A DNA stretch of 64,000 nt, taken from sequence record PQ352352.2. One strand, written 5' to 3'. How positions within the stretch are numbered: the stretch's first letter is position 1; each line of letters starts with the position of its first letter. The position numbers were made by a program, and so were the translations under genes. Positions 1-1,816 of the stretch are shown piece by piece. The DNA is from Escherichia phage vB_EcoM_PTE-Eco15. Below the pieces are notes generated by a model. That model was not told the origin of the DNA, did not search any database, and saw nothing but the letters and a program-made list of their open reading frames with translations.

Positions 1-156
1 GCAGGATTTACTAATTCTTTACGTATGCTCCAACAAAAACGCTGGGATGAAGCAGCAGTAAATCTAGCCCAATCTAAATGGTATCGTCAGACACCTAATC
101 GCGCGAAACGCGTAATCTCAACATTTAAAACAGGAACTTGGAAAGCGTATATATGA
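1..156 (+). CDS. e: Lysozyme (endolysin) gene, 3' end only (5' partial)
   Basis: Frame 1 translates to ...[38 protein letters not shown], matching the T4 lysozyme C-terminus from memory; stop at 154-156. Confidence 0.85.
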
Positions 157-434
157 AAACATATAGTGAATTTTTATCAGAATCTATTCTTAACGAAGCT
201 ACTGACACATTTGCAACTAAGCTAGGTGCAGCTTTGGTTGAAGCCGAAAGTCTATTAGCACGTATTTCTGAACTTGCTAGTAAGATAGATACTCGCAAAT
301 TTGATCGCACCAGTGATATCGTTAAGCTTGAAGCCTTGTTGCGTATGTGCGATAAACCGGAAGAAATCGCTAAGAACGGCTCGCTGATGAAACAACGTCT
401 TGAAAAATATATTTCAGGCGCTTCAGAAAAATAG
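153..434 (+). CDS. Internal-protein-like small protein with capsid-targeting-like N-terminus ([10 protein letters not shown])
   Basis: ATG at 153 overlaps the e stop (ATGA); N-terminus resembles the T4 internal protein targeting sequence MKTYQEFIAE; 93 aa. Confidence 0.55.
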
Positions 435-493
435 TTGTTTACTTCCTCCAAGGGTTTTGATACTATACATTCATCAACTACTTGGAGGAAATT

Positions 494-907
494 ATGACTC
501 GTATCAATTTAACACTTGTTTCTGAACTGACCGACCAACATCTTATGGCTGAGTATCGTGAATTACCACGCGTATTTGGTGCAGTCCGTAAACATGTTCA
601 AAACGGTAAACGTGTAAAGGATTTTAAAATCTCTCCAACATTTATCTTAGGCACAGGTCACGTAACATTCTTTTACGACAAACTTGAATTTTTACGTTTA
701 CGACAAATCGAGCTAATCGCCGAATGCTTGAAACGTGGTTTCAAAATCAAGGACACGACAGTCCAGGATATTTCCGACATCCCTGCCGAATTTCGTAATA
801 ATTATGTCCCGTCCGAAGCGTCCATTGCGATAAGTCAAGCACGCTTAGATGAAAAAATTGCTCAACGTCCGACTTGGTACAAATACTATGGTAAATCAAT
901 TTACTAA
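494..907 (+). CDS. denV: Endonuclease V, pyrimidine-dimer DNA glycosylase
   Basis: 138 aa, [12 protein letters not shown]...[13 protein letters not shown], near-identical to T4 DenV as remembered; GGAGG Shine-Dalgarno upstream. Confidence 0.93.
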
Positions 908-913
908 GGAAAA

Positions 914-1174
914 ATGAAAATGTATCAAGAATTTATCGCTGAAGCAGATGCCAAAGGCCCCAAATTTAAAGTTAAAGCTTTCGTTGGTGATGCCGAAGAT
1001 TTTGGCTCATTAAAACGTAATGGGTATTTTTTCTTAGGTGGTGATGGTAAAGAAATCAACACCTATGCAAAACGCAGTGAAATTGCTTATGTTGCTGCAA
1101 GTCCTAAAGTAGATGTTGACGATATTGGATACGATTTTAACAACTTCGGAATTATTTCTGGCGGTGAAGCTTAA
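914..1174 (+). CDS. Internal-protein-like (capsid-targeting-like N-terminus MKMYQEFIAEA)
   Basis: 86 aa ORF whose first 10 residues match the T4 internal protein targeting consensus. Confidence 0.6.
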   Translation: MKMYQEFIAEADAKGPKFKVKAFVGDAEDFGSLKRNGYFFLGGDGKEINTYAKRSEIAYVAASPKVDVDDIGYDFNNFGIISGGEA

Positions 1175-1237
1175 ACGGTTTACGCTTAAGTATTAATATG
1201 GTATAATTACTCTATCAAAACAAACAAGGAAACAAAA

Positions 1238-1816
1238 ATGAAAACGTATAAAGAATTTATCGCTGAAGCTTCTGTGGAAAAGGCCAAAGGCATTAATAAA
1301 GATGAGTGGACCTATCGATCGGGAAACGGCTTTGACCCTAAAACAGCTCCTATTGAACGATACTTAGCTACAAAGGCTTCTGACTTTAAAGCTTTCGCTT
1401 GGGAAGGACTTCGCTGGCGTACCGATTTAAATATTGAAGTTGACGGACTTAAATTTGCTCATATTGAAGATGTTGTTGCTAGTAACTTAGACGCAGCTTT
1501 TGTTAAAGCCGACAGTGATCTTCGTCGCTGGAATTTAAAACTGTTCTCTAAACAAAAAGGCCCGAAGTTTGTGCCTAAAGCCGGTAAATGGGTCATTGAT
1601 AATAAATTAGCTAAGGCTGTCAACTACGCTGGTCTTGAATTCGCTAAGCACAAATCATCATGGAAAGGTCTTGATGCAATGGCTTTCCGTAAAGAATTTG
1701 CCGATGTTATGGCTAAAGGCGGCTTTAAGGCAGAAATAGATACCTCTAAAGGTACGTTTAAGGACGCTAATGTTCAGTACGCTTATGCCGTTGCTAATGC
1801 AGCCCGTGGTAATTAA
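1238..1816 (+). CDS. Internal protein III-like (basic, Lys-rich, N-terminus MKTYKEFIAEA)
   Basis: 192 aa, close to the T4 IPIII size (about 194 aa); targeting-like N-terminus; lysine-rich composition. Confidence 0.6.
   Translation: MKTYKEFIAEASVEKAKGINKDEWTYRSGNGFDPKTAPIERYLATKASDFKAFAWEGLRWRTDLNIEVDGLKFAHIEDVVASNLDAAFVKADSDLRRWNLKLFSKQKGPKFVPKAGKWVIDNKLAKAVNYAGLEFAKHKSSWKGLDAMAFRKEFADVMAKGGFKAEIDTSKGTFKDANVQYAYAVANAARGN

Follow-up and report, generated by a model that had tools for sequence, protein, structure and literature searches.

Near one end of a 64,000-nucleotide stretch of Escherichia phage vB_EcoM_PTE-Eco15 (PQ352352.2; the whole stretch is referred to as the window), the interval between the lysozyme gene e and vs.8 holds three genes whose products begin with a capsid-targeting sequence (CTS), the leader of T-even internal proteins (Ip). 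We consider it probable that this is the e-to-vs.8 Ip locus of a Tequatrovirus with glucosyl-hydroxymethylcytosine (glucosyl-hmC) DNA, encoding three Ip proteins that would be packaged, cleaved and injected as anti-restriction or anti-defence factors, in an order produced by recombination. The window order is e-ip5L-denV-ip7L-ipIII-vs.8 (ip5L and ip7L standing for an Ip5-like and an Ip7-like gene), as compared to e-ipIII-ipII-denV-vs.8 in T4; the Ip genes occupy the same interval between e and vs.8 as ipIII and ipII in T4 and ip4 in T2. A preliminary description of the window had placed CTS genes at 153–434, 914–1174 and 1238–1816, with denV between the first and the second, and had given the T4 order as e-ipIII-ipII-denV. 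Both Pfam and PHROGs put denV at 494–907, the order given for T4 matches the T4 record, and coordinates and leaders of the three genes are borne out, save that the second product starts with MKMY (residue 3 being Met) rather than with MKTY. The locus comprises the following features:

1–156 (+): 3′ end of the lysozyme gene e; the translation is the T4/RB69 lysozyme C-terminus
153–434 (+): Ip5-family internal-protein gene, 93 aa; phrog_3499 'internal head protein', E-value (E) 2e-46; leader codons 1–15 at nt 153–197
437–466 (+): T4-early-type promoter upstream of denV (GTTTAC ... TACTAT); annotated at the equivalent position in phage vB_EcoM_Lutter
494–907 (+): denV, pyrimidine-dimer DNA glycosylase (endonuclease V), RB69-type allele; Pfam PF03013 Pyr_excise, 3e-14; phrog_1183, 1.5e-62
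914–1174 (+): distant Ip7-family internal-protein gene, 86 aa; phrog_2667 'internal head protein', E 1.2e-19; phrog_35655, E 2e-25
1179–1207 (+): early promoter upstream of ipIII (TTTACG-17-TATAAT, TG extension), RB69-type; 10 of 12 matches in a consensus scan
1238–1816 (+): ipIII orthologue, 192 aa, chimeric; phrog_5341, E 6e-118 over residues 1–192 of 192
1817–1993 (+): ipIII-vs.8 spacer, 177 nt, carrying the third recombination junction
1994–2533 (+): vs.8 homologue, 179 aa from the Met at 1994; phrog_1488, E 1e-78; conserved right border of the variable locus

The source of the window is assigned to Tequatrovirus by its closest matches: over the first 2.6 kb, parts of which are matched by 914 phage records, it shares 99.6% identity with Shigella phage ESh30 and 99.0% with Escherichia phage vB_EcoM_Lutter, and the two phages belong to this genus. 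Its plus strand corresponds to the T4 strand bearing e, ipIII, ipII and denV. Further downstream, also on the plus strand, lie genes for an alpha-glucosyltransferase (28678–29880; Pfam AGT, E 8e-258) and a beta-glucosyltransferase (41520–42575; Pfam T4-Gluco-transf, E 2e-96). Therefore, the phage DNA is predicted to carry glucosyl-hmC of the T4 type, the glucosylation set being that of T4 and not that of T2 or T6.

Leaders and predicted processing

By their N-termini, all three products qualify as carriers of the CTS of T-even internal proteins, and PHROGs places each of them in an 'internal head/virion protein' family. When all six frames of the 64-kb window are translated, the pattern MK[TM]Y.EF[LI].E turns up three times, always at the start of one of these open reading frames (ORFs), and is absent from 200 shuffles. 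Y4, F7, L/I8 and E10 are present in all three proteins; the leader of the 86-aa product reads MKMYQEFIAE (nt 914–943) and that of the 192-aa product MKTYKEFIAE (nt 1238–1267). In published work, the first 10 residues of IPIII were enough for packaging and leaders were found to be 10–19 residues long, with positions 4 and 7 governing targeting, positions 8 and 10 governing processing, and gp21 cutting after L/I-x-E (PMC9026906). Each ORF is preceded by a Shine-Dalgarno-like sequence or has a coupled start: the ATG of the 93-aa ORF (153–155) overlaps the TGA stop of e (154–156) in an ATGA at 153–156, the 86-aa ORF begins 6 nt past the denV stop, within TAAGGAAAAATG, and ipIII comes after AAGGAAACAAAAATG, with AAGGAAA as ribosome-binding site.

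The cleavage-site context that the preliminary description proposed to look for is found in all three proteins, with a putative gp21 site of the form L/I-x-E at the end of each leader: I-A-E10 in the 86-aa and 192-aa products, and both L-S-E10 and L-N-E15 in the 93-aa product. Across the Ip5-family alignment, M1, T3, F7 and E15 are invariant leader positions and L/I-x stands ahead of E15 (T2 Ip5 has ...TITE), and E10 is missing in some members, for example T2 Ip5 (MKTFKEFATKTTITE). The 93-aa leader differs from these in being a hybrid that also contains the L-x-E10 of the IPII/IPIII type. T4 IPI has a longer, Thr-rich leader that ends in I-T-E19 followed by A, in the same style as the Ip5-type L/I-x-E15; the delivery logic would be the same, and the IPI leader appears to be the best model for E15 cleavage in the Ip5 family, even though the mature part of IPI (phrog_4363) is dissimilar to both small window proteins. 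Because E15 is invariant in the family and the IPI leader is alike, we predict the 93-aa protein to be cut after E15 and possibly also after E10, to yield a mature product of 78 residues (83 in the case of a cut at E10 alone) with an isoelectric point (pI) of about 8.1 and a net charge of +1. Cleavage after E10 would turn the 86-aa protein into an acidic product of 76 residues (pI 4.9, net charge −2), and mature IPIII is predicted to be a basic protein of 182 residues (pI 9.6).

Family assignments

Alignment to T4 IPI, IPII and IPIII, again as suggested beforehand, singles out the 192-aa protein as IPIII, both small proteins sharing just the leader with IPII. With 183 of 192 residues identical to T4 IPIII (95%; BLASTP, E 9e-139), the product of the third CTS gene qualifies as a plain IPIII orthologue, and it has the same type of 10-residue leader, size and basic charge. 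The ratio of non-synonymous to synonymous substitution rates (dN/dS) between window ipIII and T4 ipIII is 0.11. Two things set the window gene apart from its T4 counterpart: it lies after denV and directly before vs.8, whereas T4 ipIII directly follows e, and its promoter, ribosome-binding site and leader are of RB69 type, with K5 in place of the Q5 of T4.

The two small proteins belong elsewhere. In BLASTP comparisons of either one with T4 IPII, nothing could be aligned beyond residues 1–11, that is, the leader; T4 IPII is in a different family (phrog_7857), and neither protein is thus classified as an IPII orthologue. Residues 1–87 of the 93-aa protein match the phrog_3499 profile over positions 1–85 of 85, and the protein is 48–52% identical to Ip5 of T2, RB70 and Bas37 (49% for T2 Ip5). 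UniRef names the family members P0018 and P0019 as Ip5 of T2 and RB70, and the 93-aa protein is accordingly counted here as a member of the already named Ip5 family, by similarity. It shares with Ip5 of T2, RB70 and Bas37 the core KLG.AL.EAE..L..RI.ELA...EIAKNGS.MK.RLE. It differs from them in being 8–9 residues longer at the C-terminus and in its gene being next to e, where those of T2, RB70 and Bas37 are at the ipI locus, next to 57B, which is the second polymorphic Ip locus (57B-trna.4). Against RB69, codons 16–93 of the Ip5-like gene give a dN/dS of 0.06, on the small counts of 6 nucleotide and 1 amino-acid differences. An exhaustive HMMER search with the family profile returned 3–4 related clusters among 1.84 billion representative proteins, apart from spurious long repetitive proteins; with so few clusters, the family is therefore confined to T4-like phages, without bacterial homologues that could hint at its function. 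AlphaFold models the 93-aa protein as three helices with a predicted local distance difference test score (pLDDT) of 79.

The 86-aa protein matches phrog_2667 with residues 1–84 over profile positions 1–79 of 101, a family that includes T2 Ip7 (E 5e-41). It is 34% identical to T2 Ip7, with insertions and deletions, and 92% identical to RB69 ORF125c. While the family-profile match and scattered conserved positions link it to Ip7 of T2 and MX01, Ip7 has 102 residues and is encoded at the ipI locus, as opposed to an acidic protein of 86 residues at the e/denV locus. We therefore classify it as a distant Ip7-family member, best regarded as a separate subfamily (also captured by phrog_35655). Its dN/dS relative to RB69 is 0.39, again from small counts (13 nucleotide and 7 amino-acid differences). 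AlphaFold proposes an alpha/beta fold with a pLDDT of 83, yet the five models disagree (range 43–83); in a Foldseek search, the model matched nothing in BFVD apart from its own family, a homologue in a Morganella phage and, weakly, Ip7.

Taken together, the idea of an alternative internal-protein repertoire in an order unlike that of T4 holds up: two of the three proteins are orthologues of none of T4 IPI, IPII or IPIII, and instead of ordinary IPII and IPIII orthologues in the standard order we find two other families in a different one. The 93-aa protein had also been called divergent and a possible new variant. It does represent an alternative family, but not a new one, as Ip5 was named before and the layout is common and annotated.

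A mosaic with three junctions

How did this gene order arise? BLAST divides the region into segments of different ancestry. Window positions 1–1267 are 96.8% identical to RB69 (Mosigvirus) and just 84% (e) and 77% (denV) identical to T4; positions 1226–1835 are 92.8% identical to T4 ipIII and its flank; and positions 1856–5287 are 96.8% identical to T4 and 81% identical to RB69. The window denV has 0 amino-acid and 5 nucleotide differences from RB69 denV, compared with 77% nucleotide identity to T4 denV. In three-way alignments, the left junction falls inside e at about nt 55–59, with T4-like diagnostic positions up to nt 54 and RB69-like ones from nt 60. The right junction coincides with the end of the 30 nt that encode the ipIII CTS: the sequence is RB69-like before it and T4 ipIII from codon 11 onward. 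Promoter, ribosome-binding site and CTS of ipIII match RB69 ORF124c, with 2 mismatches in the last 30 nt. At the third junction, about 1836–1855, the 3′ flank of ipIII meets sequence that follows denV in T4, the window from 1856 matching T4 starting at the first base past the denV stop.

By these alignments, the unusual gene order is best described as a recombination product, a mosaic with three junctions. An RB69-type module of ~1.2 kb (~58–1267), comprising the 3′ end of e, the ip5-like gene, denV, the ip7-like gene and the promoter, ribosome-binding site and CTS of the next gene, would have replaced the T4-type e-ipIII spacer and been joined to the T4-type mature part of ipIII at the end of the CTS-coding 30-mer; the T4 ipII-denV segment is absent downstream of ipIII. 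With a crossover at the end of these 30 nt, the conserved leader would thus have acted, or at least served, as a recombination joint. If true, this makes the 30-nt leader-coding sequence a joint that allows anti-defence cassettes to be swapped. Repoila et al. reportedly proposed such a role of the leader sequence for Ip loci in 1994. PMC3012670, PMC9026906 and PMC12373910 refer to their paper when dealing with Ip diversity.

RB69 itself has the order e-ORF127c (93 aa)-denV-ORF125c (86 aa)-ORF124c-ORF123c-vs.8, with ORF124c and ORF123c also starting with a CTS. The ORF127c-denV-ORF125c block and the window thus share genes, order, intergenic promoters and the leader on the following gene, but RB69 has ORF124c and ORF123c (phrog_3966) where the window has ipIII, and the leader of ORF127c is scrambled in the RB69 record. 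Comparing positions 1741–1790 of that record (AY303349) with window positions 153–200, the RB69 leader reads MKTYMNFYQNLSLNE; a 1-nt deletion is compensated by a 1-nt insertion 22 nt later, so that CTS residues 5–12 are scrambled and the remainder is unchanged. This could be either a genuine loss of targeting or a pair of sequencing errors.

Promoters and expression

The promoter at 437–466 carries the same motif as is found upstream of T4 denV, although it was missed by the consensus scan. The one at 1179–1207 is annotated in Lutter and is identical to the sequence upstream of RB69 ORF124c. No late-promoter motif (TATAAATA) is present on the coding strand within window positions 1–4000. Two such motifs lie just upstream of e in both Lutter and T4, and all Ip genes are co-oriented downstream of them; late expression by read-through from upstream of e is therefore plausible, as for T4 ipIII and ipII. 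Besides, a perfect late-promoter consensus, TATAAATA, occurs on the minus strand at about 1836–1843, in the ipIII-vs.8 spacer and pointing into ipIII. It may be there by chance or be the source of a late antisense RNA.

Possible function of the three proteins

What might the three proteins do? Host immunity encounters injected internal proteins before any other phage molecule, and the few whose targets are known inhibit modification-dependent restriction enzymes with high specificity. T4 IPI inhibits GmrSD of E. coli CT596 (PMC3012670). Ip1, Ip2 and Ip3 each inhibit one distinct GmrSD type IV variant without cross-protection, Ip2 acting on BrxU/GmrSD of ECOR21 and Ip3 on the GmrS1/GmrSD2 pair of ECOR17 (PMC12373910). 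Plating of T4 on ECOR17 needs IPIII, which acts in the cytoplasm without its leader (PMC9391042). Finally, Bas37_0260, a CTS protein at the ipI locus of phage Bas37 (KarlGJung), inhibits McrBC (bioRxiv 10.1101/2025.11.20.689424). Since all four CTS proteins with assigned targets (Ip1, Ip2, Ip3, Bas37_0260) hit type IV enzymes, such a role is the most likely one here, and a counter-defence role of the window proteins is plausible in light of the current literature. Bas37_0260 resembles the small window proteins in its size (77 aa), its CTS and the position of its gene, which lies beside that of Ip5 in a polymorphic Ip locus, but the sequence similarity is confined to the leader, which rules it out as a relative of either. 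Pfam, NCBIfam and PADLOC contained no match for any of the three Ip proteins, and a sequence search of the PDB returned nothing meaningful.

The proposed sequence of events starts from what can be read in the window, namely a CTS start and L/I-x-E at residue 10 in each protein, with a second site at residue 15 in the Ip5-like one. As in established T4 biology, the leader would bind the scaffolding core of the prohead, so that the proteins become enclosed in the head; gp21 would then cut after the Glu, and the mature proteins (about 78–83, 76 and 182 residues) would be injected together with the DNA. By orthology, IPIII would then block a type IV restriction system made up of two genes, GmrS1/GmrSD2, like that of ECOR17. 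Least certain is the final step, in which the Ip5-like and Ip7-like proteins would each neutralise another first-line host defence, most probably a further type IV enzyme.

Several observations weigh against this interpretation. Assays of ip4–ip10 against GmrSD variants neither identified nor reproduced any new inhibitory interaction (PMC12373910); T2-type Ip5 and Ip7 were presumably among the genes tested and, if so, the nearest named relatives of both small proteins are without a known target. A literature search found no report of virion proteomics for the 93-aa and 86-aa products or under the RB69 ORF names. The predicted mature small proteins are not basic, with net charges of +1 and −2 as opposed to +5 for IPII and +10 for IPIII. 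Foldseek searches of the PDB with both small-protein models gave no match at E ≤ 0.001, and therefore neither a structural clue to a target nor a resemblance to IPI*. The late promoter lies outside the window. As for the Ip7-like gene, its dN/dS is high, it is annotated as two overlapping coding sequences in the 99%-identical Lutter (3920–4175), indicative of a frameshift, and metagenomic alleles carry internal deletions (P0008, P0015) or a frameshift (P0010); the gene seems to be often lost or broken.

Some of these points would fit a scenario in which the Ip5-like and Ip7-like proteins are packaged and injected, yet aim not at type IV enzymes but at another early host defence or process. The lack of reproducible inhibition by ip4–ip10 among the tested GmrSD variants (PMC12373910) speaks for it, as does the neutral or acidic nature of the mature proteins, unlike IPII and IPIII. 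In addition, the ip5L-denV-ip7L module is common to Mosigvirus, with arabinosyl-hmC DNA (PMC8594841), and the glucosyl-hmC window at about 97% nucleotide identity, which argues against a target that reads a single sugar. We nonetheless regard this scenario as unlikely: every CTS protein with an assigned target (Ip1, Ip2, Ip3 and Bas37_0260) hits a type IV enzyme, the diversity of GmrSD is very large and few variants have been tested, and BrxU/GmrSD of ECOR21 also cuts hypomodified DNA, so that sugar independence is compatible with a type IV target. Somewhat less doubtful, and put forward tentatively, is the broader notion that one or both small proteins are injected inhibitors of a defence not yet tied to any Ip, be it an untested type IV subtype or another class. 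As the module is common to arabinosyl-hmC and glucosyl-hmC phages, the target would, in that case, have to act on both DNAs; the sharing leaves room for a sugar-independent target.

Could one or both small ORFs, chiefly the 86-aa one, instead be decaying remnants that have kept their leader and lost their function? The split of the Ip7-like gene in Lutter, the truncated, internally deleted and frameshifted alleles elsewhere, its dN/dS of 0.39 with 7 of 13 differences being non-synonymous, and the −1/+1 frameshift pair that scrambles the Ip5-like leader in RB69 all point this way. However, both ORFs are intact in the window, with good ribosome-binding sites and an intact CTS; the Ip5-like gene is 95–99% conserved in about 230 records and has a dN/dS of 0.06; and the Ip7-like gene is present at at least 90% identity in 150 records, with 60–70% identical homologues in Salmonella and Shigella phages. 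Decay is thus very improbable in our view. We give even less credence to the small proteins being structural or charge-balancing head contents, or aids to scaffold assembly, devoid of an anti-defence role. Such a role has precedent in that T4 IPIII mutants show slower head assembly and smaller bursts and that lysines of internal proteins contact the packaged DNA (PMC9026906, PMC3012670), but with net charges of about +1 and −2 the small proteins would make poor DNA counter-ions, and their presence or absence varies among near-identical phages (0–4 Ip genes), which is typical of accessory arms-race genes.

With inhibitors this specific, the Ip repertoire is one of the factors that set the range of wild E. 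coli and Shigella strains open to a T4-like therapeutic phage, and it makes sense to include both small proteins in screens for targets. The locus adds no new principle.

How common is the layout?

At least 80% of window positions 100–1900 is found in one place in 71 phage records, as compared to 22 with the e-ipIII-ipII-denV layout of T4. The Ip5-like gene is present at at least 90% identity in 234 phage records and, among the matches listed, adjoins e in every high-identity match; T2-type Ip5 is found in 258 further records, and phage ime09 has an Ip5-family match at two places. The Ip7-like gene occurs in 216 phage records, including Salmonella and Shigella phages at 60–70% identity. Depending on the phage, the e-vs.8 locus contains 0, 1, 2, 3 or 4 Ip genes, as illustrated by the following:

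T2 (MH751506, 2261–3410): e-ip4-vs.8, no denV; vs.8 split into two fragments
JK1: e-denV-ip4
PYPS2T: e-denV-vs.8, no Ip gene
RB69: four CTS genes between e and vs.8

Since T2 lacks denV at this locus, denV itself belongs to the cassette region that varies. Strong conservation when present, combined with frequent loss, is the pattern expected of accessory host-range genes.

The preliminary description thus read a known hypervariable locus correctly, and the arrangement is not new. Polymorphism of Ip loci is said to have been described since 1994 (Repoila et al.). The Ip families have names already, earlier publications cover both the variability of the locus and its origin by recombination, and many genome annotations list identical genes, those of Lutter being labelled 'internal head protein' and 'internal virion protein' in RefSeq. 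What the window offers is a widespread combination (Ip5-like, Ip7-like, IPIII) together with a clean cross-genus exchange of cassettes at the leader sequence.

Further observations

To the right of the locus, the window is collinear with vs.8-vs.7-vs.6 of T4 at 96.8% identity. Nothing points to a structured RNA in the 177-nt ipIII-vs.8 spacer (no Rfam match, folding z-score −0.2). T4 vs.8 is annotated as a protein of 219 aa starting with MRDSRQP..., yet in the window this extension is closed by a stop (ORF 1882–1983), and RB69 is without it as well. Window, T4 and RB69 share the downstream start M-R-T-F-L (window 1994). Thus, judging from this comparison, the Met at 1994 is probably the true start of vs.8 and the T4 annotation is probably too long.

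A CTS-like leader was also noticed far from the Ip locus. An ORF of 54 aa (47314–47478, +; family phrog_1823, function unknown) takes the place of T4 gene 61.1 immediately before the primase gene. It starts with MKTFKEFIKE and thereby includes an I-K-E10 site. Residues 2–38 of its product align with residues 57–93 of the T4 major capsid protein gp23 (43% identity, pairwise E 2e-8), I-K-E10 falling on L-T-E65 of gp23. E65 is presumably the site at which gp21 cleaves gp23, in which case the residues that follow would form the N-terminal arm of mature gp23*. Homologues of the 61.1 product are found in 1400 phage records, including T4-like phages of Acinetobacter, Aeromonas and Vibrio, and a few are labelled 'major capsid protein'; no literature on the product was found. 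The 61.1 product could be a peptide that is packaged, act as a gp21 decoy or mimic the capsid arm, and it may be more unusual than the Ip locus itself.

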